Part shown: piece by piece, positions 2,659-41,622 of the stretch | How the letters are laid out: each line of letters opens with the position of its first letter | How positions within the stretch are numbered: position 1 is the stretch's first letter | IMG/VR virus record: IMGVR_UViG_3300002092_000070 | Location: 1 to 45,774 of that record | Origin: a virus | Lineage: Duplodnaviria; Caudoviricetes | Direction: 5' to 3' (one strand) | DNA length: 45,774 bases | Translations under genes and position numbers: made by a program | The notes under the pieces: generated by a model | What the model saw: only the letters and a program-made list of their open reading frames with translations | Databases searched by the model: none | What the model was told of the DNA's origin: nothing

Positions 2659-3204
2659 ATGGCCCGCATTGACCTTCCCAGGAGTTATGCTGTTTTGATG
2701 ACAGAGTGGCGACCAATAGCCGGATACGAAAACCTTTACGAGGTCAGCGATGACGGGCGCGTGCGCTCGCTCCCCAAGACTCGCAACAATCGTCACTACC
2801 CCATGAAGGAACTGAAGCAAGTCGCGAACCGGTTCCAGAACGGTCGGCTGCGGGTCACCCTCACCAAGGACGGCGTGCAGACCCAGCACCGTGTGCACCG
2901 GCTTGTGGCTAGGGCATTTCTGGGAGAAGACCCCCGCCACGTTCTTCATCGCAACGACGACCCGACCGACAACCGGGTGGAAAACCTCTACTACGGCGAC
3001 GACAGAGATAACTCTTTCGACGCTGTCAGGAATGGTCGGCACCCGATGGCGAACCGCACCCACTGCCCCCAGGGACACGAGTACACCCCCGAGAACACGC
3101 ACCTGACCAAGAACGGTGGTCGTCGGGTGTGCCGGGCCTGCCTGCGGATTAAGTCCCAGGCTAGGCGTGACCGCGAGAGGGGAACACATCATGGCCAGGG
3201 TTGA
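2659..3204 (+). CDS. NUMOD4-HNH homing endonuclease (likely start 2698)
   Basis: EWRPIAGYENLYEVSDDGRVRS (NUMOD4), VHRLVARAF...HRNDDPTDNRVENL (HNH), C-terminal CPQGHEY...CRAC Zn finger. Confidence 0.92.
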   Translation: MARIDLPRSYAVLMTEWRPIAGYENLYEVSDDGRVRSLPKTRNNRHYPMKELKQVANRFQNGRLRVTLTKDGVQTQHRVHRLVARAFLGEDPRHVLHRNDDPTDNRVENLYYGDDRDNSFDAVRNGRHPMANRTHCPQGHEYTPENTHLTKNGGRRVCRACLRIKSQARRDRERGTHHGQG

Positions 3205-3787
3205 CCTCGTCGAGCCTTACGCAATTCGACTTGCGAGGGAATCTGTCAGGGATAGTCTACGCTCCCACGGCGAGGAGTGCATCCTGCTGCACATGTACCA
3301 CGCCAACGAGGTGCAGGACATCCAGCCCCGGTGCGCGATCTGCTTCGACGATGTCTACAAGCAGGGCAACCGCTACGACTGCCCACGCTGCTACGGAACC
3401 ACCTTCGACGGCGGTGTCATGCACGCCTACCGGGCCTGGGCGATCTTCACCGACGCAAACGACGCGGAGGTGTTCGGCAAGCGGGGCCTGTGGCACCCCA
3501 TCGCCTCCTCGGTGCAGACCGAGAACAGGCCCGACATGTGGCAGCGCGACTACATCATCCGGGTCGCGAAATGGTCGCAAGATCACCGGGTCGAAGAGGT
3601 CGACTCGATCTATGTCATGAAGCAGGTCGTCAACGAGAGCCTGCGCACCGGGGCGATGCACGCACAGACCGTCTACGACACGATCAGCCAGAGATGTGAT
3701 GTCCAGGCCATTGCCGAAAACATGCCAATCAGCCTATTTCCGGTTAAAGGAGTGAAGTTCGACCGATTCGATGGGAGGCCGAGATGA
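3191..3787 (+). CDS. Probable head closure/neck protein with two CxxC motifs
   Basis: ATG at 3191 after GAGAGGGG; CAIC...CPRCYGT motif; position in head-tail region. Confidence 0.6.
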   Translation: MARVDLVEPYAIRLARESVRDSLRSHGEECILLHMYHANEVQDIQPRCAICFDDVYKQGNRYDCPRCYGTTFDGGVMHAYRAWAIFTDANDAEVFGKRGLWHPIASSVQTENRPDMWQRDYIIRVAKWSQDHRVEEVDSIYVMKQVVNESLRTGAMHAQTVYDTISQRCDVQAIAENMPISLFPVKGVKFDRFDGRPR

Positions 3788-3966
3788 TGGCGACTAAATC
3801 CGCCACCGCCCGCGCCAGCATGGAGCGGGATGTCACCGAGGCCCTGCTTCGGCTGAAACTTGCACGCGCACAACGTGATCGGAAACAGGTCGATCTGTGC
3901 GGGAAAGAATTGGATCGGCTCCTCGACAAGATGGTCAAAGAGCTGGGGATTGGGGCCGAGTCATGA
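3784..3966 (+). CDS. Hypothetical protein (60 aa)
   Basis: Overlapping start/stop coupling with neighbours, GGAGG RBS. Confidence 0.65.
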   Translation: MMATKSATARASMERDVTEALLRLKLARAQRDRKQVDLCGKELDRLLDKMVKELGIGAES

Positions 3967-4367
3967 GGATCATCCGCGCCCGCCAGATGGTGGAGATGCT
4001 GTCCCCCTGGCGTAAGACCGCCGGGTGGGCCGACTGGCAAAACGACGACTCCCCCGGATTCCCAATCGACAAAGCCCATCTGGAAAACGGTCACCGGCTG
4101 TCAGTCGGTCAATCGTTTTTGACTCCAGGCGCGTGGGGATACAACATCTACGGCCCAGCCACCGAAGAAAACGAATGGCCCCAGGTTGCCGAATCCCCGG
4201 TACACAACGTCAACGGCAAAGAGCGGCACGAGAACCTGACCCGTGAGCAGGCCCGTGATGCCGCCGAGAAGCACTACGAGAAGCTCTTCCCCATCGGCAC
4301 CGACACCGGCAGCCACGACTCCGGTGTCGACTACTCCGACCTGAGCAAGTTCATGGGGGAGCTGTGA
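3963..4367 (+). CDS. Hypothetical protein with N-terminal leader MRIIRARQMVEMLSPWRKTA (candidate internal virion protein)
   Basis: ATGA overlap with the upstream stop; leader similar to the gene at 40278-41084. Confidence 0.7.
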   Translation: MRIIRARQMVEMLSPWRKTAGWADWQNDDSPGFPIDKAHLENGHRLSVGQSFLTPGAWGYNIYGPATEENEWPQVAESPVHNVNGKERHENLTREQARDAAEKHYEKLFPIGTDTGSHDSGVDYSDLSKFMGEL

Positions 4368-4819
4368 CCCGTGTCCCGGCACCGGCCCCGCTGGCCGACC
4401 TGATTGCCCGCAAGGCCGTCCAGAACGCCCGCCAGGATTTACGGGGCCGGGGCTGGAAGTCCTCGGGTGCCCTGCAGCCGTTCTCGGACACGGGCAAGGT
4501 CGGTATCTCCTCGACCCTGAAATACCTGCTCAATCAGAACGAAGGCTTCGGGCCGTTCGTCATGTGGTGGGTCAAGAACCGCACCGTCCCGCTGGCCTGC
4601 AAGGTCGGGGACGGGCCGCATTTCCGTAACGGCAAGAACGTCGGCACCGCCGGATACGTGGACATCCCCCATAAGGGCCGGGTGTTCAAGCCGATCCGGT
4701 GGCGGCATCCGGGCCTGAAGCCCAAAAGGTTTATGGAGAAGGCGATCAGCCAGGCCATCAAGGACTCGCGATCCGAGACCCAGAAATCTGTCATGTCCAG
4801 CCTGAAGGGTGAGTCATGA
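4364..4819 (+). CDS. Basic neck/tail-completion protein (HK97 gp10-like)
   Basis: C-terminal RHPGLKPKRFMEKAI motif typical of this family; GTGA overlap. Confidence 0.6.
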   Translation: MTRVPAPAPLADLIARKAVQNARQDLRGRGWKSSGALQPFSDTGKVGISSTLKYLLNQNEGFGPFVMWWVKNRTVPLACKVGDGPHFRNGKNVGTAGYVDIPHKGRVFKPIRWRHPGLKPKRFMEKAISQAIKDSRSETQKSVMSSLKGES

Positions 4820-7842: not shown

Positions 7843-9546
7843 ATGTCGATGCCCATACAGCGGCAAAGTGAGTCGTTCGGCATCTTCGACGACGGCCCAC
7901 GGTACGCCCGCGATAAGAGCAGCTACGATCTGCCCAAAGGTCTTGCGGCACTGATCAATACATCCGGGCCGCGTATTCATGCCGGGCTGCACAACACCCG
8001 CACCGCCAACGATGGTTGCGAATACTGCGGCAAGCCCGGACACGACTGGCAGGCCCACCCCGAAGCCCATCGCGATGTCGCAGATTGGGAGCGCGAGAAG
8101 GCCGGAATGGAGTTTCCGTTCGGTGATCACACCGAGAGCGGGTACCCGTCCGAGGACGACCACGACGGTTCGTACTGGCCGGGCAAGCAGGGTTCTCGGC
8201 TGGCGGTCAACACCGACGGCATGAATCCCGACAACCACGCCTACCACACCGAGCTTCCTGTCGACGGCCCCGGCCCTGGCCGGATATGGAACCCCGACTT
8301 CCGCGAGTACGAGCCGTCCGAACGGGACGAGCGCGACCAGGAGGGAGTGGCCGAAGACGACGAGTCGGGCTACAACTGGGGGCCGGAGCCTGAGCAGCAC
8401 TACGGTGCCCTGGCCGAGGACTTCAGCGGCGGCGACGAGGACGATCCGGATTGGATTCGCGCCAACGACCCCCGCCAGCAGGAGCACAACAAAAAGCGCG
8501 GCGAAGAGGTCGCTCATTCCAAAGAGCTTTTCGGGAGCCGCCTCCCTTTTGATCGCGCCGCCACCGCGCGGCGCATCGTGGGCGGGCACGACGACCTGCC
8601 GCCCCTGCCGAGCGACTTCCATATCCCCGACAGCCCTGAGGGCCAGCCAGACCGTAGCCCCGGCTGGCTGCACCGCCAGTTCGTCTCCCCTCACAAAGGG
8701 GTGTGGGACATCCCCGAGCACGAGCTGGATGATCGCTGGAACAAGGTCTACGACACCCTTGGCTTCAGCCCCAAGACACGCGAAGAGTGGGAAGCCGGTC
8801 GGCACACCGACAACCCGAGCGACAAGTGGGACGGTGGCCTGGACGGCACTTTCGGCGGTGGGGTCAAGGATTATCTGACCCGCGCCCCCATGTCGAAGGA
8901 CGAGTACGCACGGCACCGTGAGGACAGCCAGAATCGCGCTAAGGGCATTGCAGACGGGCTGTGGGGCGCAATGTACCCGCCCGAAGAAGAAGAGGGCCGT
9001 AAGGCCGTCCAGAACGTGGACACCGTCAATAAGCTGATGGACAACGGCTGGCAGCCCGAGCACATCAAGTACGACGAAGACGACCAGCCGTATGGCCACT
9101 ACCAGCACCCCTCGGGCTGGAGCGTCACCGATCACGGGGGCATGTACAAGGAAATCGGGCACGCCGCCACCCCTGGCGAGTCGCACGACGTGATCAACAC
9201 GAGCCACAACATCGACGGTCAGGATTATCACGAGCCGTTCGGCCCGGCAGATGCCCACAACTTCATCGAGAACCAGCTCCACGGTGACCCCGAGGAAACC
9301 GGCGGGACGTTCCAGTACCTGACCCAGAACGACCCCCGCATCAAGAGGTACAAGCCCCGGCAGGCCGCTGTTGAGATGCAGCCCTTGCTGGGTGGCGGCT
9401 ACCAGATCGGTCACCGGGTCAAACTTCCGTACCACGGCAAGCAGATACCCGGCACAGTGATCGGGTTGACCGGCCCGAATACCCAGATTCGTTGGGACGA
9501 TGGACAGTATTCCACCGAGGAGCCTCACAACATTCAGCTCCTCTAG
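7843..9546 (+). CDS. Acidic, D/E/H/W-rich modular protein (567 aa) with C-terminal SH3-like domain
   Basis: AGGAG RBS before ATG 7843; C-term YQIGHRVKL...GTVIG...QIRWDDG. Confidence 0.75.
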   Translation: MSMPIQRQSESFGIFDDGPRYARDKSSYDLPKGLAALINTSGPRIHAGLHNTRTANDGCEYCGKPGHDWQAHPEAHRDVADWEREKAGMEFPFGDHTESGYPSEDDHDGSYWPGKQGSRLAVNTDGMNPDNHAYHTELPVDGPGPGRIWNPDFREYEPSERDERDQEGVAEDDESGYNWGPEPEQHYGALAEDFSGGDEDDPDWIRANDPRQQEHNKKRGEEVAHSKELFGSRLPFDRAATARRIVGGHDDLPPLPSDFHIPDSPEGQPDRSPGWLHRQFVSPHKGVWDIPEHELDDRWNKVYDTLGFSPKTREEWEAGRHTDNPSDKWDGGLDGTFGGGVKDYLTRAPMSKDEYARHREDSQNRAKGIADGLWGAMYPPEEEEGRKAVQNVDTVNKLMDNGWQPEHIKYDEDDQPYGHYQHPSGWSVTDHGGMYKEIGHAATPGESHDVINTSHNIDGQDYHEPFGPADAHNFIENQLHGDPEETGGTFQYLTQNDPRIKRYKPRQAAVEMQPLLGGGYQIGHRVKLPYHGKQIPGTVIGLTGPNTQIRWDDGQYSTEEPHNIQLL

Positions 9547-14326: not shown

Positions 14327-17187
14327 CCTCACCCAACGCCAACACGAGCACCTCGATCAACGGCATCCCGTCACCGTCGAAGGCCCAGGCCGAGGCAAAT
14401 GTCCTCACCAACATCGACCCGACCAGCCCACCGGCGATGAAGACCTTGGTCTACTCCCCGGATGTCCGCATCTTCATCGCGCGGGGAAGCAAGCAGTACG
14501 ACGTGTCCGCCGACGTGGTCGCCTGGTCGATCCGGAGAGTCGAAAACCAGGTCTCTTCGGCGGTGTTCCGTTTGTCGAACAAATCCACCGATGCCTCGGG
14601 CAAGAAGCTGCGCTACAACCAGCTCTTCGAGCGGATGGATCGGGTGGTCATCTGGCTCAAGCGGGTCGAGTGGGTGCAGGTGTTCTCGGGCTACCTCGAC
14701 AGCGTCCCCCACGTCCAGCTCTACCCCGGCACGGTCAGCTTTCGGGCCTCGTGCACGTTAAAGCGTCTCATGCACACCTGGTGGGACGCGGGCCTTCCGG
14801 CATCGCAGGCGATCTTCAACCAGGCTGGCGAGGCCCAGAAAGAGGAGGCCAACGGCGAGGCATCGGTCGACATGGGCCTGGGTTCGCTGCTGCGCCGTCT
14901 GCTGGTTCTGGTCGGGAACTGGGAGGCGAAGAACATCCATATCCAACGGTTCCCGCTCGGTTTCTTCCAGTTCATGAAACAGCAGCTCGAACGGATGACC
15001 CCCGGCGACAATGCCAATGTCCGCAGCTTCGAGCAGCTGCTCCTGGGCGAAGGAGACATCAGCCTCGGTGTCGGACGCGCGGCCAGTATGCAGCAGGGCG
15101 TGACGATGGGCGGCTACGCGCTGACTCAGCCGGAACGGATGATGGAAGTCATCCAGGCGGTCGACGACATGGGTATGGGGGTCGACACGGCCACGGTCGC
15201 CGCCGCCCAGGGCGTGGGAACCGCCGCGACCGGCGGTAAAGACCAGAAAGACCAGGCGGGCTGGAACGCCTTTGTGGAATTGGGCAAAAACTGGCAGGAC
15301 GCGGCACTCAAAAACGATGCCGCCGTCCACTGCTTCATGGTGATCGCCGCCGAATCGAACTGGCACATGTACGCCAACAACGCCGTCCCCGAGTCGCTCG
15401 GCTACGTCTACGACCCCGGCTTCATCTCCAAAGACGGTTCGTCGGTCGGCCTCTACCAGCAGCAGAACTTCGGCGAGTGGGGAACCATCGCCCAGCGGAT
15501 GAACACCAAGGCCTCGACCCAGATGTTTCTCCAGCACCTGCAACGCTACGACTGGCGCAACATGGATCGCGCCGCCGCCTGCCAGGCGGTGCAGCGGTCA
15601 AAGTACAGCGATGGCTCCAACTATAAAACGCACGAGGCCACAGCCATCGAGGCCGTCCGGGCGATGCGCTCCGGAACCGGCACCGGCGCGGGCGCAGCCG
15701 GTCAGGCCAACGACAATCCCCTCAACGCCGTCGGGCCGGGTGCCACGGTGGTTGGCTCTGTCACCACCCCGGCCATCCCCGGCACCCTGTCAAACCCGAC
15801 CACGGCCATTCCCACCAACAACGGCACCCCCGGACTGTCGGCGACCGGGTCGGCGGTCGGCAAGCCGGTCTACGACACCGGTGGCGCGCTCACCTGCGCC
15901 CTGCAGCAGGTCGGGAAACCCTACGTGTGGGGAGCCAAGGGGCCGGAAAGTTTCGATTGCTCGGGGCTGGTGCAGTTCTCGTACCGCTCTATTGGCTTAG
16001 AGGTCGGTGAGGGAACCTACCAGCAGGCTGCCAGCCTGGAGCGCATTCCGGCCTCCAATCTCCAACCCGGCGACATCATCCAGCCGACCACCGACCACAC
16101 CGGGATGTATGTCAGCCCCGGCATGTGGATCGCCGCCCCCCAGACCGGCGACGTGGTCAGGGTGCAGCCAATCTACTTTCCGCTGGAGACCGCCACCTGC
16201 TTCCGCGCCCCCGGAGCCTCCTACGGTGGCACCGTTCCGGCCCCCTACGACATCGCCCGCGCGATGTCGGCATCCAATGCCACCGTCGGTACCGTCACCG
16301 GCGGACTCAATGGTGTCACGGCGACCGGCCACACCGAACCGATTGCCCGCAACCTTTTCACCTACCAGTTCATGCCTGGGCAGTTCTCGCCGAATGTGTC
16401 GGTCATGCTCGGTGGCCAGCCCGGCGGCGAAGAGAAGGCGTTCATCAACGACGAACCGCTTTTCCAAACCGTGGTCTCTTTCGCCCAGGCCGGGCTGCGC
16501 AATTTCCAGTCCGCGCCGAATGGGGATTTCATCGCCTACTACCCCGACTATTTCGGACTCGACGGCAAGGACGCGGTATTCACCCTCGAAGACATCGAGA
16601 TGAAAAACGTCCAGATCGACCTCAATGACGACGCGATGACGACCCACGTCTACATCGCCGGTTCACAGGGGATGAATGCCAGCAATTCTGGAATCCTGGG
16701 CTGGCTCAATTCCAAGGGTGTCGCGACCGTCGAGAACGAGTGGCTTTTCCGGAGAATGACCGCCGCCGCGCCGCATGTGCCCGGCGAGCTGCTCCAATCG
16801 GGTGCGGAGATCATGAAGAAGTTCGGTGTCCGGCCATTGAGCCGCACCATGACCTCCATTATCGGGGGGCCGATGGAGTTCCTGATGGCGGTGCAGCTTT
16901 TTATGCAGAAATGGGCCGAACAGTATTCGACGGTCATCGAGACGACATTCCTGCCAGAAGTTTTCCCCGGAATGCGTGTCCATCTCGCCCAGCACAATCT
17001 TCAAGTGTATGTTTCTGAGGTAACGCATTCCGGTGATTTCGAGAATGGATTCACGACCACCATGACGATCATGGCCCCATCCAATCCGAATATCAAGAAC
17101 CTGGCGGTGTCGATCTTCAACGCGACCGCCCAGGAGGTTTCGTCTCGCCAAGACCTGCTCCGTAACGCCAGCGAGGTGCCCGGATAA
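14323..17187 (+). CDS. Baseplate hub protein with lytic-transglycosylase-like and NlpC/P60 peptidase domains
   Basis: GKPYVWGAKGPESFDCSGLV…HTGMY (NlpC/P60); IAAES…SVGLYQQ (lysozyme-like); hub-like N- and C-termini. Confidence 0.85.
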   Translation: MTSPNANTSTSINGIPSPSKAQAEANVLTNIDPTSPPAMKTLVYSPDVRIFIARGSKQYDVSADVVAWSIRRVENQVSSAVFRLSNKSTDASGKKLRYNQLFERMDRVVIWLKRVEWVQVFSGYLDSVPHVQLYPGTVSFRASCTLKRLMHTWWDAGLPASQAIFNQAGEAQKEEANGEASVDMGLGSLLRRLLVLVGNWEAKNIHIQRFPLGFFQFMKQQLERMTPGDNANVRSFEQLLLGEGDISLGVGRAASMQQGVTMGGYALTQPERMMEVIQAVDDMGMGVDTATVAAAQGVGTAATGGKDQKDQAGWNAFVELGKNWQDAALKNDAAVHCFMVIAAESNWHMYANNAVPESLGYVYDPGFISKDGSSVGLYQQQNFGEWGTIAQRMNTKASTQMFLQHLQRYDWRNMDRAAACQAVQRSKYSDGSNYKTHEATAIEAVRAMRSGTGTGAGAAGQANDNPLNAVGPGATVVGSVTTPAIPGTLSNPTTAIPTNNGTPGLSATGSAVGKPVYDTGGALTCALQQVGKPYVWGAKGPESFDCSGLVQFSYRSIGLEVGEGTYQQAASLERIPASNLQPGDIIQPTTDHTGMYVSPGMWIAAPQTGDVVRVQPIYFPLETATCFRAPGASYGGTVPAPYDIARAMSASNATVGTVTGGLNGVTATGHTEPIARNLFTYQFMPGQFSPNVSVMLGGQPGGEEKAFINDEPLFQTVVSFAQAGLRNFQSAPNGDFIAYYPDYFGLDGKDAVFTLEDIEMKNVQIDLNDDAMTTHVYIAGSQGMNASNSGILGWLNSKGVATVENEWLFRRMTAAAPHVPGELLQSGAEIMKKFGVRPLSRTMTSIIGGPMEFLMAVQLFMQKWAEQYSTVIETTFLPEVFPGMRVHLAQHNLQVYVSEVTHSGDFENGFTTTMTIMAPSNPNIKNLAVSIFNATAQEVSSRQDLLRNASEVPG

Positions 17188-20100
17188 TGGCTTACGATAC
17201 CGGGTTCTCCCGCCGTTCGGCCTCCGAACGGGAAATCCAGCCGGTCGCCATCATCTCGGTGGATGCCGTCAGCCGCACCGCTATCGGGGCGACCCGCACC
17301 CATCACAGCATCCACATCAACTGCGCCTACGCGACCGGGGACACGATCACCGTCCCGGCGACCGGCGAGCAGTGGTACGTGGAACGCTTCGACGGCGAGT
17401 GGCGGCTCTATGGCCGCATCCCGTTCAACGACGCGACCCTGAACATCACCCCCGAAGAGGGCCAGGTCTCGGTCGGATCGGCCTGGGGGCCTTTGGAGCT
17501 GAACGGCCCCGAGGTGCGGTTCAACAGCAAGGTGTTCCGGCTCAACGGGGTCTACTACCGCGACTCGGGTACGTCCCTGGAGCGATCCACCGATCAGGTG
17601 ACCTGGACGGCGGTCAGCGCGGCCACCGCGACCACCCTGGCCCAGGAGCTTGCCGCCTCGCTGGCCGGGTACCAGGGCGACAGCCAGCTCGGGGCATTGT
17701 CGGCCCTCAAGGATTGGGGTGGCCTGGTACAGACCATCGTCGATAATTTCACTGAGTTCTGGAATGTGTTGTGCCAGAATGTCTTTGTCGGCGGACTCAA
17801 AGACTTAGGGTTTGGCGACACCGATCTTTCGAAGATTGTCGATGGTTTCCAGAACTTTTTGAACTACCTGTTCGGGGTGGTCTTCTGTGATTTTAACGGA
17901 GACCTGACACCACAGACCGTCTTGGCCAGGCTGCGTGACCTGATCGCGCCACTGACCACCAACCCGTTCATCACCGGCCTCCAGAAAATCGCTCAGATTC
18001 TCGGTGTCGATGTCGGCAACCTGCTCAACGACGCGGTCAACGGTGCCACCTCTTTCCTCAAGGTGATCTTCGACATCATCTCCTGCAACTTCACCGACTT
18101 GGCCGCGCTGCTGGTTCCGCAGGGCGGTATGCCGCCGAAGATCGCGCAGATCATCGGCTCTATCGGGGCCGATTTCGGCCCGGCCAACATCATCGCTTTC
18201 CTGTTCGACACGTTCGGATTCTTCGCCGACCCGACCAACCCGTTCGGGGCTTTCATCCTCGGCTTGCAGGGTTTCTTCTCCGCGCTGTTCGGCACCACCG
18301 GGAGCCTGCTGAAGGACGTTCTCAGCGGCGTGGTCAAGTTCTTCCAAATCCTGCTCGGGGTGATCCTGTGCAATCCCGATGCCCTCGCTAAGGCCGAAAC
18401 GATCTGGGGGATCGTCACCGCTAGCGGGTTCGACTTCTTCAACCTTCCCAGCGACCTGAGCGTGCTGTTCCAGCCCGACAAGATCATCGGCATCTTCTAC
18501 CAGATTTTCAAGCCGATTATTGACTTGGAGAATGGTTTTCTCGCGCCAATCCTCAACGCGCTCAAGGATTTTGCCCAATCAATGGGACACGATGTCGTCA
18601 GTCTCCTCGACGGCACAATGGTCGGCATCACCGAGCTTTTCCGGGTCGTGTTCGGCATCCTCACCTGCGGCCTGTCCGATACCGAATGGGCAAGATTGGG
18701 GGGATTCCTCGCCACGGCGACGGCGGGGATTTTGCCCACCGACGTGATCGGTTTCTTCTTTGCGGTGTTCAATCCGCTGCGCGACGCGGTGGGTAATCCG
18801 ATCCGCATTTTCCTCGACAGCCTTCAGCTCATCGCCGAGAAGCTGGGGAACACTGTTGTCGGACTGCTCGACGGGGCATTGATCGGCGCGGTCGAGTTGT
18901 TCAACCTCCTATTGGGCGTGATCGCCTGCCAGCCCGCCAAGCTCGCACAACTAGGCGGTCTGCTTACCGACCCCTCGGTGCTCGGCAAGCTCGGCCTAGG
19001 CGGGCCGCTGGATGCCTTGGCGACCCTCGCCGGGGCGATTAGCGGGCTGCTGGTCAACCCGTTCATCGCCATCATCCAAAAAATCGCCCAGACGCTCGGC
19101 TTCGGCACCGAAAACTTGATTGCCCAGATACTGGGCGGCTCGTCCGCTCTGGTGTACTCGCTGCTCAAGATCATCATCACCGTTTTCCCGCTGGGACTTT
19201 CGACCTGGCAGTCGCTGCTGTGGTTCGTCCCCGACAGCGTGTGGGCCGGTGTCGCCGCCTACAACATCGACCTGAGTTTTCTGGGCAACCTCGACCCGCT
19301 GCTGATCTTCCTCAAGCCGCTAGAGGAATACCTGGGCTGGGCGGCGGGCAGCGCGGCAAACTTCTACGCCAACTTCCTCGCAGTTTTCAACGGGATGGGG
19401 TTCTTGGACGCGAACTTCAGTGTCGAGACTGCGGTTCAGCACCTGATCCACAACATACTCGGCATCGGCGATGTCAACGAGTTCGGACAGTTCGTTGTCG
19501 CCACCACTGCCAGCAGCCTTAGTGGTCTGGCCGACTGGATTACGGCCAATGTCCTCAACGGCGTGACCCCGGCGCAGTTTCTGGCCAATCTGAACGCGGT
19601 TTTCGGCTCGACCAATCCCCTGTCGGCCACCTTCAACCTGGCGACCGCCGCCACTAATTTCCTCTCCAATATCGCCACGCAGCTGCAGGAATGGATCAAA
19701 AACAACGTATTTGGCGGGTTGGCTAGCTTGTCGGCCTGGGTTACCGCCAACCTGCTCGGTGGCCAGACCACCCTGTCGTCGTGGTTCACCACTAACATCC
19801 TCGGTGGCCTGGCAAACTTGTCTGCCTGGATTGCCGCCAATGTCCTCAACGGACTTACACCCACCCAGTTTCTGGCCAACCTGACATCTTTGTTTGGATC
19901 GACCAACCCCCTGTCGTCGGCGTTCGCCGTCGGTCAGGCGGGCAGTAATTTCTTGACCAACATCAGCCTCCAGCTGCTCAACTGGATCACCACCAACGTC
20001 CTGAACGGGATCACGCCCACCGCTTTCCTAAACAACCTGACGACCATGTTCGGGTCGGCCAATCCACTCGCCGCCGGATTTAACTTGACGACCGCCGCCC

Positions 20101-22637
20101 AGGCGTTCCTCACCAATATCGCCACCCAGCTCAACGACTGGATTAAGAACAATATCCTTAACGGACTCACCCCAGCGCAGTTTCTGGCCAATCTGAACAG
20201 CTTATTTGGGTCGACTAATCCCTTGTCGGCCACTTTCAGCGTGGCCACCGCCGCCACCAATTTCCTCGCCAATATCGCCACCCAGCTTTTAAATTGGATT
20301 AAAAACAACGTATTTGGCGGTATTGATCCCAGCACCGTTTTCTCTAACCTCCAATCTTTCCTCGGATTCAACCCACTGAGTTCTTCAATCACCCTCAACA
20401 CCGTTGTCTCCAATTTCCTTCAGAATGTCTTGAAGCTGACCGACAGCAGCGGTTCAATCCTGTCCACACTGATCCCGAATGCCCTTGGCGCGGTTGGTGA
20501 TTTCTTCGCGAACATTGCCACCTTCCTCGGCTTCGATCCGAGAAACTATACGACCGCTAACTTCAACCTCATCACCGTCGTCCCACTGTTCCTCAACAAC
20601 ATCAAAGATATTTTGACGAGCTGGGTGAACTTCTTTGTCCTTGGCGGACACGGGAGCATCGGCGCGTGGGCGCAAGCCAACATCACCGTTCCCATCATCT
20701 CGCAGTTCCTGACCGGTCTGAACATCAGCCCCGCCAAGATCGGCATCACCTCCGACTCCGATTGGGCCAGCGTCAATCTAAGCAAGCTCGGCGACATCGC
20801 GGGCCTGCTGCTGACCAACCTCACTCAGATTCCGGCCAACTTGATCAATGGCACCTTGCCGCCTGCGGTGGTGGGGTCGGTGCCGGTCTCTAACATCTCC
20901 AACGACACGCCCAACCTCATCACCCTCGGTACCTTTTCCGAGTCGGTTAGCGTTGAGGCCGCAGACGGCTGGGTGTGGGACAGCGTGCAGACCGCCACCG
21001 GCAGCGGCGGCTCGACCCGAGTCGCGATCACCTCGGCCAAGAACCGCTACCTGTACTCGCGGCAGGCGGTGCCGGTGGTCAAGGGCGACCGGCTGGTGGT
21101 CAGTGCCGCCATCAAGACTTCTGCGCTCACCACCTCCGGTGGCACGACCCCAATCTCAATTGCGATCCTGCCTTTCGCTGGAGGGGTGCAGAAGACTGAC
21201 GGTTCGGGAAATCCCCTTGTTGTCACTATCGGCAGCGCGGTCGGCAGCAATACGACCTGGACGACCATCGGCAACACCACCGCTTCCCCTTATACCGTCA
21301 CCGATGCCACTTGGACTTCGGTGATCGTGCGGCTGACCGTGGACTCGACCGCGACCGGCGGCAACGTCTGGTGGGACGACGTTAGCTTTAAGAAGACCGG
21401 CGGTCTCATTCAGGGCAACGTCGACTCCCTGAACGCGGCCTGGAACAAAGTGATCGGCGGCTTGACCAACGCCCCCGCCACCACCGGACTCGATTGGACG
21501 AGCCTGTACGGGGCCGCGTATGCGGCTCGCGGCGTGGCTGATAGCGGGTATACATACTCCACCAACACCAACTCCACGCTGTTCAACAACCCGGCGGGTG
21601 GCTCCTCGTTTTACAGCCCCGGCAGCCTGATCACCAGCCTGGCTGGCGTTAAAGCCGACGGCACCTACACGATGACCAACCTGTTGTACTACCTGGCATC
21701 ACAGTTGAGCCAGAACGCCAATGTCGGCGGCACGGTTGCCGATGTCTACAACGCCGCCAGCGGCGCAGGCACGACGCTGACCACTACGGTGCCGACCAGC
21801 GCAATAAGGATTAATAACACCAACAACACCCTGTTCGGTGCCCAGGCCGGTGGCACGGTGCTGACCAACCTGTCCACGCTGATCAGCAGCCTGTCCACCG
21901 TAAAAGTTGATTCCTCAACCGCCGTAACGATGGCGACCCTGCTGGGATACCTGGCAGGGGGTTTGAGTCAAAATATTTACACCGGACAGACGGGCACGGC
22001 GGTTCAGTCCGCCGCCACCCTTGCCGGATCAAATGCCGGTGGTGCCAAGGTCAACATCGACACCGTCAACACCACCTTGTTTGGAAACGCCGCCGGAGGA
22101 AGTACGGTTCGGGTTCAGGTTCTCCCCACCGCCGATATCGGCAAGGCCCTGACGACAACCGGATCGGGCGCAATGCTGATCCGCACCACCACCACAGTGC
22201 AGTCGGTTGGTGGCCAGGGACTTCATATTGTCCCCAACAGCTTCTTCAACACCTACAGCACTAAAAGTGCCGATATCAACATAATCAGCGGCAACACGGG
22301 CCTTCAAGTAACTCTCGCCGGATGGTACATGGTAGAGCTGGCCTACAAGCTCAACGCGGTCGCATCTTGGGGCTGGAACTTCACGCCCGTCCTTTACGTC
22401 AATGGCTCTCCGACGAAATACGGCACCGACTGCATGTATACCTGGGCCGGAGTGACCAGTGCCGGTGGCCAACGTCAAGTTCAAAACAGCTTTATCGTCT
22501 ATCTTGCCGCCAACGGATACGTTCAGGCCGGGTATGATGTTGCCCTGGGAACTTATCTCAACGACAACGTACTGGGCGGCGGAACCGCCAGCCAGACGTA
22601 CTTCTCCATATCGCTACTCAACCGCAGTTACGCATAA
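17187..22637 (+). CDS. Large spike/minor tail protein (1816 aa) with amphipathic repeats and carbohydrate-binding-like domain
   Basis: Follows hub; N-terminal spike-like ~140 aa; 52-aa repeats; GNVWWDDVSF motif; C-terminal beta domain. Confidence 0.8.
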   Translation: MAYDTGFSRRSASEREIQPVAIISVDAVSRTAIGATRTHHSIHINCAYATGDTITVPATGEQWYVERFDGEWRLYGRIPFNDATLNITPEEGQVSVGSAWGPLELNGPEVRFNSKVFRLNGVYYRDSGTSLERSTDQVTWTAVSAATATTLAQELAASLAGYQGDSQLGALSALKDWGGLVQTIVDNFTEFWNVLCQNVFVGGLKDLGFGDTDLSKIVDGFQNFLNYLFGVVFCDFNGDLTPQTVLARLRDLIAPLTTNPFITGLQKIAQILGVDVGNLLNDAVNGATSFLKVIFDIISCNFTDLAALLVPQGGMPPKIAQIIGSIGADFGPANIIAFLFDTFGFFADPTNPFGAFILGLQGFFSALFGTTGSLLKDVLSGVVKFFQILLGVILCNPDALAKAETIWGIVTASGFDFFNLPSDLSVLFQPDKIIGIFYQIFKPIIDLENGFLAPILNALKDFAQSMGHDVVSLLDGTMVGITELFRVVFGILTCGLSDTEWARLGGFLATATAGILPTDVIGFFFAVFNPLRDAVGNPIRIFLDSLQLIAEKLGNTVVGLLDGALIGAVELFNLLLGVIACQPAKLAQLGGLLTDPSVLGKLGLGGPLDALATLAGAISGLLVNPFIAIIQKIAQTLGFGTENLIAQILGGSSALVYSLLKIIITVFPLGLSTWQSLLWFVPDSVWAGVAAYNIDLSFLGNLDPLLIFLKPLEEYLGWAAGSAANFYANFLAVFNGMGFLDANFSVETAVQHLIHNILGIGDVNEFGQFVVATTASSLSGLADWITANVLNGVTPAQFLANLNAVFGSTNPLSATFNLATAATNFLSNIATQLQEWIKNNVFGGLASLSAWVTANLLGGQTTLSSWFTTNILGGLANLSAWIAANVLNGLTPTQFLANLTSLFGSTNPLSSAFAVGQAGSNFLTNISLQLLNWITTNVLNGITPTAFLNNLTTMFGSANPLAAGFNLTTAAQAFLTNIATQLNDWIKNNILNGLTPAQFLANLNSLFGSTNPLSATFSVATAATNFLANIATQLLNWIKNNVFGGIDPSTVFSNLQSFLGFNPLSSSITLNTVVSNFLQNVLKLTDSSGSILSTLIPNALGAVGDFFANIATFLGFDPRNYTTANFNLITVVPLFLNNIKDILTSWVNFFVLGGHGSIGAWAQANITVPIISQFLTGLNISPAKIGITSDSDWASVNLSKLGDIAGLLLTNLTQIPANLINGTLPPAVVGSVPVSNISNDTPNLITLGTFSESVSVEAADGWVWDSVQTATGSGGSTRVAITSAKNRYLYSRQAVPVVKGDRLVVSAAIKTSALTTSGGTTPISIAILPFAGGVQKTDGSGNPLVVTIGSAVGSNTTWTTIGNTTASPYTVTDATWTSVIVRLTVDSTATGGNVWWDDVSFKKTGGLIQGNVDSLNAAWNKVIGGLTNAPATTGLDWTSLYGAAYAARGVADSGYTYSTNTNSTLFNNPAGGSSFYSPGSLITSLAGVKADGTYTMTNLLYYLASQLSQNANVGGTVADVYNAASGAGTTLTTTVPTSAIRINNTNNTLFGAQAGGTVLTNLSTLISSLSTVKVDSSTAVTMATLLGYLAGGLSQNIYTGQTGTAVQSAATLAGSNAGGAKVNIDTVNTTLFGNAAGGSTVRVQVLPTADIGKALTTTGSGAMLIRTTTTVQSVGGQGLHIVPNSFFNTYSTKSADINIISGNTGLQVTLAGWYMVELAYKLNAVASWGWNFTPVLYVNGSPTKYGTDCMYTWAGVTSAGGQRQVQNSFIVYLAANGYVQAGYDVALGTYLNDNVLGGGTASQTYFSISLLNRSYA
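19536..20450 (+). repeat. 156-bp (52-aa) and 45-bp (15-aa) coding repeats
   Basis: Trp codons of the repeat unit at 19536, 19692, 19827, 19983, 20139, 20295; unit WI.NNVLNG.TP.QFLANL..FGSTNPLS..F...AATNFL.NIATQL. Confidence 0.9.
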
Positions 22638-25229: not shown

Positions 25230-27089
25230 GTGGCAAACACCCCCGATGTGGTCAGCAAGAACATTCTGGCCAAGCTCGCCATCACCGCCCCCGGCTTCTC
25301 GTTGGAGCTGGGCACCCCCGAACGCAAGATCGTGGACGCGGTCGCCGAGGCGATCAGCGAGTCCTCCATCGACCAGTACCTGGTCGGCTCGCTGCTCGAC
25401 ATCGAGAGCAAGGCCGGGCTGGAGCTGGAGCAGTTCTGCGGAATCTTCGGTTTCGGTCGCCTCCAAGGCCGTAAGGCCACCGGAACGGTGCGTGTAGAGC
25501 TGAACACCGCCAACGCTCAGGACATCAACGTCCCGCTCGGCTCCCAGTTCTACACCCGCCAGTCGCTACCGTCCTCGGGCAGCCCCCTATACTTCTCCTC
25601 GACCCAGGCCGTGATCATCCCGGCGGGTTCCTACGTCGTCGACGTTCCGGTCGAGTGCACGGTGATCGGCACGACCGGCAACGTCTCGCCGGACACCATC
25701 GTCTACGTCGGCGACATCCTGGGGGCGACCTCGGTGACCAATCTCCAGGCCCTGACCGGGGGCGTGGATGTCGAGACCGACGACGAGCTACGGCAGAGAT
25801 TCAAGGACACGTTCCTGCGGTCGGTGATCGGCACCGAAGACTGGTATCTGGGCCTGTGCTACACAAACCGCAACGTCTCCAAGGCCGCGTGCTTCGGGCC
25901 GATCAAGAAGTACGCGACCCAGCTGGAAATCCCGGCAGATGTCGACAGCCAAACCCCGTCCATCATCTCGATGGATTCCCTGATCGCCGCCGACATCAAG
26001 TACGCCTGGGGCGGCGACCAGCATGTGACGGCGTTCAAGAACCTCGGCCAGACCGATGAGGTGTTCTTCCGCCGCCACGACGACTACGACTGGATATCCG
26101 GCCCCGAACCGAAGTTCGCCCGCATCCTGGGTGGTGCACTGCTGCCCGGCGACGTGGTCGACCTCGAATTCGAGTACACGACCCGGTCGTCGCGCAACGA
26201 CCCCGATCTCGGGATCGCCAACAAGGTCGACATCTACGTCAACGGCAACGAACCGTACACGGTCACCGAGCGCACCACGCTCGCCGACATCACCCTCACC
26301 AACACCACCACCGACCAGCTGTACGCCGGAAACTTCGCCCGCGTCGGCACTACCGGCGTTCCGCTAGACGGCCACCGGTTCACCCGGCTCGGTTCGACCC
26401 CGGTGGTTTCGTTCCCGTCGATCATCACCCTGACCTCGGTGGTCAACGGCACCCCGATCACCGCCAACTACACCCAGGGCCTGGACTACCATCTGATCCG
26501 GTCGGCACCCGAACTGAACCCCAACGCGACGACCCTGCTGGCCGGTTCACAGTACGAGATCGCCGGGATCGAGTGGATGCCCGATGGCCCGGCGGTCGGC
26601 ACCAGCCTCTCGCTGAGCTACATCTACAACCGGGTGCCCGAGCACCTCCAGGCGGTCATCAAGACCTCCAAGCAGGTCGCCACCGATGTCCTGGTGCATC
26701 AGGCCGGGTACCGGTACATCACGGTCTGCCTGTCGGTCGAGTACGACCGTGGTTTCGTCGTCCAGCAGGTCAACAACGCGATCAACGAGCGGCTCCGGTC
26801 GTATTTCGCCGGACTGCCCTACGGTGCCTGGATCGAGATCAGCGACGTGATCCTGTCCGTGCACCAGGTGCTCGGTGTCGACAATGTCAAGATCACCAAA
26901 TCCACCGACCCCGGCGCGGTGGTCACCTCCGGAAACACCACGACCGAAAACTACGGGATCAAGACCTACGGCGACAGCACCGACCTGACGATGCTCACCG
27001 AGCACCCCTATACCGAAGATTTCAAACTCCGCGACAACCAGCTGCCGGTGTTCCTTGAGGCCATCATCCGCCGGACAGCGAACCGGTGA
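25230..27089 (+). CDS. Baseplate J-like protein
   Basis: ATGTVRV, VECTVIGTTGNV, VTNLQALTGGVDVETDDELRQR motifs. Confidence 0.92.
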   Translation: MANTPDVVSKNILAKLAITAPGFSLELGTPERKIVDAVAEAISESSIDQYLVGSLLDIESKAGLELEQFCGIFGFGRLQGRKATGTVRVELNTANAQDINVPLGSQFYTRQSLPSSGSPLYFSSTQAVIIPAGSYVVDVPVECTVIGTTGNVSPDTIVYVGDILGATSVTNLQALTGGVDVETDDELRQRFKDTFLRSVIGTEDWYLGLCYTNRNVSKAACFGPIKKYATQLEIPADVDSQTPSIISMDSLIAADIKYAWGGDQHVTAFKNLGQTDEVFFRRHDDYDWISGPEPKFARILGGALLPGDVVDLEFEYTTRSSRNDPDLGIANKVDIYVNGNEPYTVTERTTLADITLTNTTTDQLYAGNFARVGTTGVPLDGHRFTRLGSTPVVSFPSIITLTSVVNGTPITANYTQGLDYHLIRSAPELNPNATTLLAGSQYEIAGIEWMPDGPAVGTSLSLSYIYNRVPEHLQAVIKTSKQVATDVLVHQAGYRYITVCLSVEYDRGFVVQQVNNAINERLRSYFAGLPYGAWIEISDVILSVHQVLGVDNVKITKSTDPGAVVTSGNTTTENYGIKTYGDSTDLTMLTEHPYTEDFKLRDNQLPVFLEAIIRRTANR

Positions 27090-36047: not shown

Positions 36048-36068
36048 CTGAATTTTTGGCTGGCATTC

Positions 36069-36141: not shown

Positions 36142-36411
36142 GTGGCGTTGTCCGAGCATTACGAACGAGCCAACGACAGCCTGGTCAAGCGGACCTGCAA
36201 GACCTGCGAATGGTACAAGACCCTACCACCCCATGAACAAGACTTTTTCGACGAGAAGGTGCGCGAGGCACTACTGACGCGGGGCAATATGCAGCGTCTC
36301 CGGCGGGCCGTCCTCTCCGAGGGCCACGAGGTCGCCCGATCCACCTTCCACGGCCACGTCCACGAGCACCACCTGGAGCTGGCCGCTCAACGCAGGGCGG
36401 GGGAGCTGTGA
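36142..36411 (+). CDS. Small CxxC/His protein (89 aa)
   Basis: GAGG RBS; CKTC and HxxxH; coupled to next gene. Confidence 0.7.
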   Translation: MALSEHYERANDSLVKRTCKTCEWYKTLPPHEQDFFDEKVREALLTRGNMQRLRRAVLSEGHEVARSTFHGHVHEHHLELAAQRRAGEL

Positions 36412-40277: not shown

Positions 40278-41084
40278 TCAGAAACCCCAGTACGCGGCGG
40301 TGGTGTGATAAGTCTTGTCGCCAATGTCTTGCCATTCGCTATCGTCATCGACGCTGTAGGGAACCTTGATCTGCTGCACCTTGAGAGGGGCTTTTTCGCG
40401 AAGCATGATCTCGTGCTCGTGATCAAAATTTCCTGATCCGGCCCGGCTGTAATTTTCTCCGCGACCGTTCCAGTCCGAATCTAGAAGCAGCGGAAGATGT
40501 GGCCCTTTTCCTCGAAGATCGGAGCCTTCCCCTCGGCCCCAGCCATAATCGTCGCCAATGTCGTAGTCGGTACTGTGATGCTCGCCGACACCACCTTTAG
40601 CGTTAAAGCCGTCGATAATCGCGTCAGCCAGACCAGGGTGGTCAAAATTTCCACCACGGTCTTCGTAGCGCAGATCGGCATCGGGAAACATGCCGGGGTC
40701 GTCGACAGGCTGGCCCTGGCCGTAAGTCATCTGCCACACCCGCCGGAACGCTGGGTCGCTGGTGTTGATCGGATTCCCGCGCCACAACCGAGTCGAGGTG
40801 CCCTTGATTTTTTCCATGCCGGGCAGAGTCTTCTGAGGTAGATGCTCGGGGCCGGTCTCTAGCGTAGGGTCACCCTTGGTCGGGCGGGAAGCCCATTCCG
40901 CCTGTGAGTCGGGATCGCCCTTGATGTTCTTGACGTGCTGCTTGGTCAGCTCGGCGGGGCTGGTGGTCTCTTCTTTCCACCGGCGATCCATGATCGCCTT
41001 GGCCCGGTTCTGAGCCGCAGCGTCGGCGGTGCGCCACGGCGCGAGCATTTCTGCCTGCTCGCGGGCGGTGATAATACGACGCAT
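40278..41084 (-). CDS. Putative R-S-E ADP-ribosyltransferase with N-terminal leader MRRIITAREQAEMLAPWRTA (268 aa)
   Basis: AGGAGG RBS; RLWRG…GEHHSTDYDIG…DHEHEIML in the order of ART motifs. Confidence 0.6.
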   Translation of the reverse strand: MRRIITAREQAEMLAPWRTADAAAQNRAKAIMDRRWKEETTSPAELTKQHVKNIKGDPDSQAEWASRPTKGDPTLETGPEHLPQKTLPGMEKIKGTSTRLWRGNPINTSDPAFRRVWQMTYGQGQPVDDPGMFPDADLRYEDRGGNFDHPGLADAIIDGFNAKGGVGEHHSTDYDIGDDYGWGRGEGSDLRGKGPHLPLLLDSDWNGRGENYSRAGSGNFDHEHEIMLREKAPLKVQQIKVPYSVDDDSEWQDIGDKTYHTTAAYWGF

Positions 41085-41098
41085 AGTGACGGCCTCCT

Positions 41099-41133
41099 GC
41101 TGATTAAAGGCGGTCGAAGCCGGGACGGCAGGG
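41099..41133 (-). promoter_or_regulatory. Putative late-promoter motif CCCTG-N16-CGCC-TT-TAA
   Basis: Same spacing as the sheath-gene motif. Confidence 0.5.
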
Positions 41134-41175
41134 GTGTCGGGTGTTGCGCCCCTAATGACACCGGTGTAACTTATG

Positions 41176-41560
41176 ACGAAGGCCCCCATCATCGCCCTGG
41201 CAGGCTAGGGGGCCTTCGTAATCAACGAGCCGTCTCTCAAAATACCAGATATGGGACTTTTGAGACAAGCGGCTCCCGACAAGCGGGAGGGTAAACCGCC
41301 CCCGGCGTTATGCGGGTGAGTCCGCCGGGTCACCAAACCAACCACTTCCTGCTGTCGCCTGGCACCTAATACGTCCTCGCGGCTGTGCTCACTCCTAATC
41401 GCTCGGACAGGCGGGCTACCCGATCTGCGGTTGCAAACGTGGTGACGGTCGGATCGAAGCCCCTTGGCCAGAAAAGGTCAGGGGGCCAGAGGTGGTGGAG
41501 ACAAACCGTGGGCGGTTCAATGGGAGGTCGGGGCCTGGGAGGTCTCATAGCTTTGCTCAC
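41176..41560. ncRNA. Candidate structured non-coding RNA (~390 nt), strand uncertain
   Basis: At least five stem-loops in an interval without a convincing ORF; + strand TTGCGC-17-TAACTT promoter at 41144-41172. Confidence 0.5.
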
Positions 41561-41622
41561 CACTATGTTTACTACACCGTGTCACAAAAGACATAAGCAC
41601 ATAAGGGTGTAGACTCCTGCAT

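Follow-up and report, generated by a model that had tools for sequence, protein, structure and literature searches.

A shared N-terminal leader on unrelated proteins of actinobacterial myophages is a candidate capsid-targeting propeptide

Two otherwise unrelated proteins encoded by a fragment of an actinobacterial myophage begin with the same 20-residue leader (hereinafter leader A), which recurs at the start of diverse proteins across related phages. We propose that leader A is probably a tag that targets late proteins into the assembling head and is cleaved by the prohead protease after an alanine. A capsid-targeting propeptide combined with protease punctuation offers the best reading of the sequence patterns described here, from which we infer the packaging, cleavage and injection of the tagged proteins. 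The DNA analyzed is a single virus contig of 45,774 bp, taken over its whole length (hereinafter the window).

The window is assigned to a fragment of an uncultured, cluster C/AA-like actinobacterial myophage. It has PHROG matches for tail sheath, tube, chaperones, tape measure, baseplate, helicase and aminotransferase, and the order of these genes is that of the cluster C mycobacteriophage ET08 and of Phrappuccino. The relatives have genomes of about 150 kb and the window thus corresponds to roughly one third of a genome; the record starts downstream of the capsid genes, with the portal, protease and capsid genes being absent from the 45.8-kb fragment. Judged from the relatives only, the host would be actinobacterial. 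Other features of the window are a minor tail protein of 1,816 aa (17187–22637), as compared to 489 aa in ET08, with siphophage-type tail domains, and an HNH endonuclease gene (2659–3204) inserted among the neck genes.

The first carrier, P0001 (3963–4367, + strand, 134 aa), begins with MRIIRARQMVEMLSPWRKTA followed by G, and combines leader A with a 114-aa body of no named family. The second, P0002 (41084–40278, − strand, 268 aa), begins with MRRIITAREQAEMLAPWRTA followed by D. Copy 1 of the leader (20 aa; 3963–4022, +) ends in the predicted protease site KTA|G, where the homology boundary also lies, and copy 2 (20 aa; 41025–41084, −) ends in the predicted site RTA|D. Both starts are credible: the ATG at 3963 overlaps the stop of the gene at 3784–3966, and the ATG at 41084 has GGAGG directly upstream, with a longer in-frame ORF beginning at 41192. 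Among the 496 pairs formed by the first 25 residues of 32 window proteins, P0001/P0002 has the top score (61, the next being 38), which none of 20,000 shuffles reaches (shuffle maximum 49); a chance origin of the shared leader is rejected. Past residue 20, the score falls to 31, a value equalled by 678 of 1,000 shuffles; a shared folded domain is also rejected, and the bodies are, by sequence, unrelated. The initial annotation had claimed precisely such a common start of about 20 residues on two unrelated proteins with no visible similarity thereafter, and both parts of the claim are borne out, with no sign of a domain running over the full length. A six-frame motif scan finds no third copy of leader A in the window.

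The initial annotation had also suggested searching for further tagged cargo with a profile of the leader, and such searches show it to be widespread. A tblastn search with P0002 returns 47 phage records, in 37 of which, by identity bands, the match covers residues 1–23 only; a three-sequence HMM finds two further tagged genes in 40 kb of Tonenili, and scans with the leader DNA pattern recover 21 viral and 25 metagenome stretches. In six-frame scans of the relative loci collected, 58 copies score at least 20 against a best reversed-ORF score of 8.7. A 50-sequence profile detects 433 proteins at E ≤ 1 (8,000 candidates scored), and an index-free search yields 199 protein clusters at 50% identity carrying leader A. 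One leader alone matches 213 cultured records (206 from Mycobacterium, 6 from Gordonia and 1 from Mycolicibacterium), including Bxz1-like phages. The exact DNA pattern, scanned against 185,579 prokaryote genomes, is found only in one 1.7-kb contig and defines no cellular family. Whole or large records contain 2–5 copies.

In the leader, A-R-E-Q, L and P-W are near-invariant. Of 121 proteins examined, 119 have the first copy within 8 residues of the start, and 17 of the 121 have more than one copy; likewise, 145 of the 150 clusters listed among the 199 have a best match that begins no more than 8 residues from the N-terminus. Two or three copies are found in certain polyproteins (L019, L024, L071; P0041–P0048), and a Met is retained shortly before 6 of the 18 distinct internal copies, which looks as if tagged genes had fused.

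What follows the leader is as variable as the initial annotation had supposed: 144 distinct post-leader sequences fall into 60 single-linkage families. The named domains among them are GNAT, DUF7178, ParB-like, glutaredoxin, zeta toxin, transglycosylase, ASCH and DUF7251. In a Pfam analysis of 91 proteins (87 new ones plus 4 picked for known domains; 19 of 106 new matches, each shorter than 100 aa, were left out), 68 have no match and 11 have a GNAT domain. While P0001 and P0002 are single-module proteins, disparate effector domains are shuffled within one polypeptide in the relatives. Thus, Phrappuccino gp195 (L004:28357–34449) is a polyprotein of 2,030 aa that combines a diverged leader and a kinase-like first module with three ART-like repeats, which RTA-type sites separate, and gp57 of the same phage (L002:38600–41866) joins an ART-like to a zeta-toxin-like domain. 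The tagged genes cluster beside capsid and neck genes.

Among the top database matches, 129 of 141 copies have their first Ala after the W at +3 or +4, P3 being R/I/K and P2 T/E/Q; this count is biased by the inclusion of those columns in the HMM. With an HMM stopping at the W, Ala is found at W+3/4 in 53 of 58 leaders (background 13.8%) and the full motif in 46 of 58 (background 1.1%), the terminal Ala being missing in five. The cleavage point after (R/K)TA originally proposed is too narrow, the refined predicted site being (R/I/K/L/H)-(T/E/Q/V/L)-A at W+3 or W+4. Ala-type sites are also present internally in polyproteins and C-terminally in modules, and the motif bounds shuffled cargo modules such as GNAT, ART-like, ParB and DUF7178. 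Where the first module of a tagged protein recurs inside another protein, the strict motif is present at 17 of 49 boundaries (background 3.4%), and Ala stands exactly at −1 in 18 of 29 internal module copies with at least 45% identity (background 6.5%), these cases sharing ancestry and not being independent.

The pattern [RK][TVQIE]A[AGSN] was read off ET08, with Phrappuccino, E3 and Myrna as hold-outs, and is enriched 5–6-fold in the protease, scaffold and core proteins of the four phages. For the core class, defined as large head-region proteins picked by gene position and size rather than by experiment, the observed/expected counts are 22/4.4 in ET08, 23/3.9 in Phrappuccino, 17/2.8 in E3 and 21/3.9 in Myrna. 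Shell proteins show 3/1.8 and 4/1.2 and non-virion proteins are barely enriched (9/6.0 and 5/5.7), while there is no enrichment in tail proteins (6/5.7, 5/5.8) or in the other proteins of E3 and Myrna (4/4.8, 3/4.2). ET08 gp94 and Myrna gp102, both of them tagged, have no match to the strict pattern, their residue after Ala falling outside it. By these motif statistics, the end of the leader looks like a site of the prohead-protease type.

A prohead protease is encoded by the relatives. ET08 gp86 (L005:43857–47717) and Phrappuccino gp53 (L002:34080–36638), listed as ‘hypothetical’ in cluster C and AA records, are by sequence a prohead protease fused to a scaffold: their N-terminal domains match the PHROG head maturation protease (E-values 4e-20 and 9e-21, respectively), and their E3 homolog, gp77, is annotated as prohead protease. 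Proteins of this type have also acquired foreign modules, such as an L5 gp82-like domain. An alignment of 27 sequences shows an invariant H48 and S-V-S-M-G, and the structural model (pLDDT 86), compared by Foldseek with PDB and viral libraries, has T4 gp21 as its best PDB match (E 6.7e-4), followed by herpes assemblins, and aligns with phage G gp19 at a TM-score of 0.84. As modeled, the protease is of the T4 gp21/assemblin β-barrel fold with conserved His and Ser. The major capsid protein of the relatives is phage G gp27-like (matching 6WKK, E 2e-28).

Candidate sites are seen at several places in the head proteins of the relatives: V-(V/L/M)-A near the end of the protease domain, R-x-A-A-(N/H)-DP-x-NDS-x-LFI at the end of the fused scaffold, GRF(A/S)(K/R)(A/S)-S in the capsid propeptide, and RTA-G ahead of the tail of the gp85-type core protein. 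The first two are comparable to the R and M sites of pseudorabies virus pUL26, whose assemblin is, in the available text of PMC4498786, separated from the scaffold at YLQA-T and presumably at VQA-S; an Ala-specific enzyme of the assemblin fold hence has precedent, and by this analogy the protease of the relatives would be Ala-specific. The comparative predictions of the capsid-targeting reading held, in that many further tagged cargos exist, the homology boundary is sharp at the Ala, the bodies have no folded part in common, the relatives have a prohead protease and the motif is enriched in head-core proteins.

We posit the following course of events. The helix R-I-V-T-A-R-E-Q-x-E-M-L-x-P-W would bind the procapsid core or shell, whereupon the prohead protease would cut after Ala in the manner of herpes assemblins. 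Its cuts would trim the leaders, remove the scaffold and split tandem cargo, and the single domains thus released (acetyltransferases, ART-like, zeta-toxin-like, ParB-like, DUF7178 and many without a named family) would be ejected with the DNA and act early in infection on the host or its defences.

It is unlikely, though worth weighing ahead of the other alternatives, that only the Ala site matters, with packaging achieved by bulk core co-assembly or DNA binding and the helix being a protease exosite or a cap that holds a toxic domain in check until cleavage in the head. Such a role would fit E3, which has no leader A, yet has cargo modules with the same sites fused into its core proteins gp68 and gp70 (the latter annotated as ‘structural protein’); it would also fit leader B (see below), a different sequence that would do the same job, as well as the potentially toxic enzymes among many of the cargos. 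However, one 17-residue sequence cannot specifically cap the active sites of 60 unrelated body families, the hundreds of Ala sites in core proteins that stand without the helix argue against its being required by the protease, and the near-invariant residues point to a single fixed binding partner.

The distribution of leader A further qualifies its role. Beyond E3, it is absent from three of five near-complete uncultured records, some complete relatives with the protease being without it, and from the examined loci of the 85-kb phages L105–L111, which share the protease and capsid family; Phrappuccino has diverged versions only. As the leader matches in only 7 of 14 relatives with the gp86/gp53-type protease, it is not needed for head assembly, and on these sequence comparisons leader A is one route among several that is not essential to the head.

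P0002 (40278–41084, −) is one of the predicted cargos. Its residues ~93–263 form an ADP-ribosyltransferase-like (ART-like) module with R, H-W/H-S-T and E-x-E motifs in order (R-S-E type), which are common to the repeats in Phrappuccino gp195 and gp57 and to ET08 gp72. The module ends in a second site, HTTA|AYWGF, and this xTA|A end is kept even five residues before the stop. The body has no Pfam match, the Atlas leads (Arr-ms, Tox-ART-HYD1 and PARP) are at 0.88–0.89, below 0.9, and a fold model from 16 sequences is of low confidence (pLDDT 38.7); the motif call and the Atlas leads together suggest an ART-like protein.

P0002 is situated in the replication region on the opposite strand; a non-coding gap at 41200–41600 separates it from the replication genes. 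Upstream of it is a candidate late promoter (41100–41134, −) consisting of CCCCTGCC, 18 bp and TTTAATCAG, with GGAGG after it; the promoter falls inside the longer in-frame ORF from 41192. The consensus is CCTG(T/C)N, 18–19 bp, (G/T)AAT(A/C)G, and this two-box motif is found upstream of lysin A, gp160 and gp232 in ET08 and of gp53, gp174 and gp194 in Phrappuccino, i.e., ahead of lysin A, virion structural and protease genes. A fixed-spacing matrix trained on 11 such non-leader sites also picks ET08 gp77, gp85 and gp94 and includes the P0002 site among its three window matches; another promoter-type site in the window, at 36068 (+), precedes the gene at 36142 and is also found before the homologs of that gene in the relatives G001 and G003. 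The motif is upstream of 17 of 50 leader genes versus 0.26% of random windows, a test that is partly circular as the regular expression was first noticed upstream of leader genes. A simple AAT..AGGAGG pattern is at chance level in the window (2 versus 1.56 expected) and the loose regular expression, counted genome-wide, does not exceed chance in the window or in G001, so that the informative evidence is limited to the matrix and the upstream-position test. Given the late-type promoter motif preceding it, P0002 is likely a late gene despite its place, driven from within the replication region. The candidate late promoter may be read by a phage-encoded sigma factor, Phrappuccino gp130 being annotated as one.

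The location of P0002 bears on a further alternative, namely that the leader stays on the protein as a helix that docks it to a partner outside the virion (a phage or host chaperone, a degradation adaptor or a replication/assembly site) and that the proteins act late in the cell. Cargos such as the glutaredoxin and the ParB-like domains could likewise act in the cytoplasm, but we give this reading little credence, as it leaves unexplained the terminal Ala motif with its variable spacing, the enrichment of that motif in protease/scaffold proteins and the fact that tagged genes lie in groups next to capsid and neck genes.

P0001 lies within the neck/tail operon, and the content of the slot that it occupies differs from one relative to another. 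In this variable cargo slot (3191–4819, +), the gene at 3784–3966 and P0001 sit between conserved flanks, a homolog of ET08 gp111 (3191–3787) and one of gp113 (4364–4819). At or beside the slot, relatives have other genes: ET08 has gp112, whereas tagged genes are present in G002, G003, L061, L069 and L072. The P0001 body has no match in cultured phages, PHROGs, Pfam or Atlas; it recurs internally in a 1,199-aa polyprotein of the relative G001 and also behind a second leader of unrelated sequence (leader B), MSRHL-ARFRHL-TA, also given as MSRHL-(M/I)A-(R/K)-F/M..xTA. Leader B is carried by P0004, P0007, P0014, P0016, P0021, P0022 and P0024; its HMM finds one additional gene only, in G002 near 25,670, and its exact DNA pattern is found in none of 112 loci. 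Among 22 P0001-family bodies, 10 have leader A and 12 leader B, and on the body tree the label changes nine times, with at least four changes forced by strong branches (shuffled mean 7.5). Both leaders end in xTA/xAA/xVA/xIA at the body start, with one xTS. By these comparisons, leaders A and B are interchangeable and have been swapped repeatedly on one body.

A probable third carrier in the window, devoid of leader A, is the product of 7843–9546 (+), a homolog of DUF7251/ET08 gp117 with 567 aa versus 277 aa. It is enlarged by inserted modules bounded by basic-x-Ala sites (3 motifs versus 0.8 expected), one of which comes after an internal copy of leader A in P0049, P0051 and P0093; another matches a gp85-type core protein. 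The window protein starts with SFGIFDD, which is similar to how the core proteins ET08 gp77 and E3 gp68 begin, and starts of this type are a possible third address motif. DUF7251 carriers adjoin the tail tube gene. This adjacency, together with the one conserved slot among neck and head-completion genes, would suit an ejection rather than a loading signal, read at the portal or tail to order exit or for neck placement; we nevertheless regard this as very improbable, as a signal ending in a maturation-protease-type site would be lost before ejection.

Codon usage clarifies the level at which the leader is conserved. In 57 distinct leaders, third positions of four- and six-fold degenerate columns are 0.33–0.63 conserved, whereas second positions are mostly at 0.75–1.0. 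Synonymous positions are free and residues fixed; therefore, selection acts on leader A as a peptide, and on this evidence it is a portable N-terminal peptide, conserved as protein rather than DNA. Tat signal peptides have a hydrophobic h-region and a small residue at −3. Least credible of all are two readings that we reject, one being that recombination has spread a DNA/RNA cassette made up of promoter, ribosome site and first codons whose peptide is functionless, the other that the leader is a twin-arginine export signal: a promoter and ribosome-binding site often lie directly upstream of the leader and the peptide starts with (S/T)RR and ends in Ala, but the cassette is largely refuted by the free variation at synonymous positions and by the leader copies persisting inside polyproteins, and the export signal by R/I/K at −3 and the lack of a hydrophobic core (mean Kyte–Doolittle 0.1, with three charged residues in the 13 aa before the W).

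Returning to the capsid-targeting reading, a more elaborate form of it is conceivable but rather doubtful. This would be a plug-and-play payload system in which a 17-residue helix, copied from the head’s own assembly contacts, docks any fused protein in the procapsid, after which the Ala-specific herpes-like protease cuts up leader, scaffold and polyprotein, leaving single effectors whose small size lets them pass the tail, with the protease sites doubling as joints for shuffling modules among tagged genes, core proteins and the protease-scaffold. The proposed sources of mimicry are the N-terminal helix of the major capsid protein, RKLSAREKQAKL, and the core-protein tail RxYSxxEQxELI. By likeness to the leader in four genomes (43,000–91,000 windows), the capsid helix ranks 4, 11, 6 and 6, and the gp85 tail 7, 662, 12 and 10; in ET08 the chance of some capsid window ranking that high is ~1.6%, a simple proportion computed post hoc. 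Mimicry is the weak link of this scheme, both likenesses being within the chance tail and that of the capsid helix having been noticed by eye first, and is best treated as a lead. If true, the system would provide a programmable protein-loading tag for mycobacteriophages and bring to light a hidden class of injected enzymes directed against the host or its defences.

The closest parallel to leader A is the capsid-targeting sequence (CTS) of T4, described in the available texts of PMC5694885 and PMC3012670 as a conserved N-terminal propeptide of 10–20 residues on IPI–III and Alt, removed by gp21, which also dices the scaffold. Both are short conserved N-terminal peptides on diverse, otherwise unrelated proteins, and as in T4 the leader ends in a motif enriched in scaffold/core proteins (here by motif statistics only), the prohead protease model of the relatives has the gp21 fold and an ART is among the cargos (Alt in T4 and the ART-like P0002 here). 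However, the T4 CTS has no apparent sequence likeness to leader A, the T4-type site ends in Glu, as does T4’s own cleavage motif, rather than in Ala, and the head is gp23-type in T4 but phage-G-like in the relatives. Furthermore, leader A also occurs internally, with cargo in site-punctuated polyproteins, and the function of the CTS is proven whereas that of leader A is inferred from sequence. The likeness to T4 drawn in the initial annotation thus survives as a modular N-terminal tag but not as homology: leader A would work like a T4 CTS, but site chemistry and head type place it outside the T4 type.

Among other systems, SPN3US has a T4-type protease that cuts after Glu, according to the available part of PMC10052503. 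The inner head proteins of SPN3US/phiKZ, as far as the accessible accounts go, share with the tagged proteins common N-termini on diverged proteins (identical in gp53 and gp54), multiple protease sites and a proposed targeting role, but their propeptides are mostly longer than 100 aa, end in A/S-x-E and are on paralogs, as compared to 20 aa on ~60 unrelated families here. In the herpesvirus pUL26, the protease is N-terminal to a fused scaffold and is cut after Ala at the release site and near the C-terminus, and fold and layout are those of the gp86/gp53-type proteins; in contrast, P3 is basic or Ile and sites are far more numerous here, and the available pUL26 text describes no cargo leader.

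The polyvalent proteins (Iyer et al. 2017), in the available text of PMC5512222, are multi-domain proteins in which domains of the ART, GNAT and ParB-like kinds have been shuffled; packaging and injection are predicted for them, and a solo GNAT among the late genes of mycobacteriophage Alice (gp113) is named there as likely capsid cargo. The shuffled multi-domain cargo of the relatives is of the same kind (PMC5512222 and PMC9503650, in their available parts). The former, however, attributes processing to zincin MPTase domains built into the proteins, and delivery in many cases to fusion with MuF, and the text available describes no common leader or prohead-protease punctuation. The marker domains MPTase, MuF and LPD are not seen in the tagged proteins here, Pfam finding none in 47 + 91 tagged or related proteins (for long proteins, among the best 5 families).

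The concept is known from T4, and leader A would be an unrelated-sequence version of it in actinobacterial myophages. The literature covered, which included few subscription papers, has no virion proteomics or N-terminal data on the tagged proteins no earlier account of such a leader in these phages and no description of protein selection for mycobacterial phage heads; searches for the leader motif and DUF7178 return unrelated papers only. Salifu et al. in 2013 reportedly described the virion proteome of E3, going by the title, which could bear on the packaging claim. The literature has no virion proteome of cluster C, the available text of PMC3029335 included.

With the concept already known, the surprise is moderate, and the proposal is directly testable with phages and a host common in laboratories. 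If right, it would turn ‘hypothetical’ genes in ~200 cultured cluster C and Gordonia records into internal, likely injected proteins with predicted mature starts. It would also predict the cutting rule of the uncharacterized phage-G-like prohead protease, annotate its scaffold and core substrates, and supply a T4-CTS-like tool for loading proteins into a phage growing on Mycobacterium smegmatis. Finally, it would give a searchable handle on a fast-changing arsenal of GNAT, ART-like and zeta-toxin-like domains and many unknown folds, which may counter mycobacterial defences.
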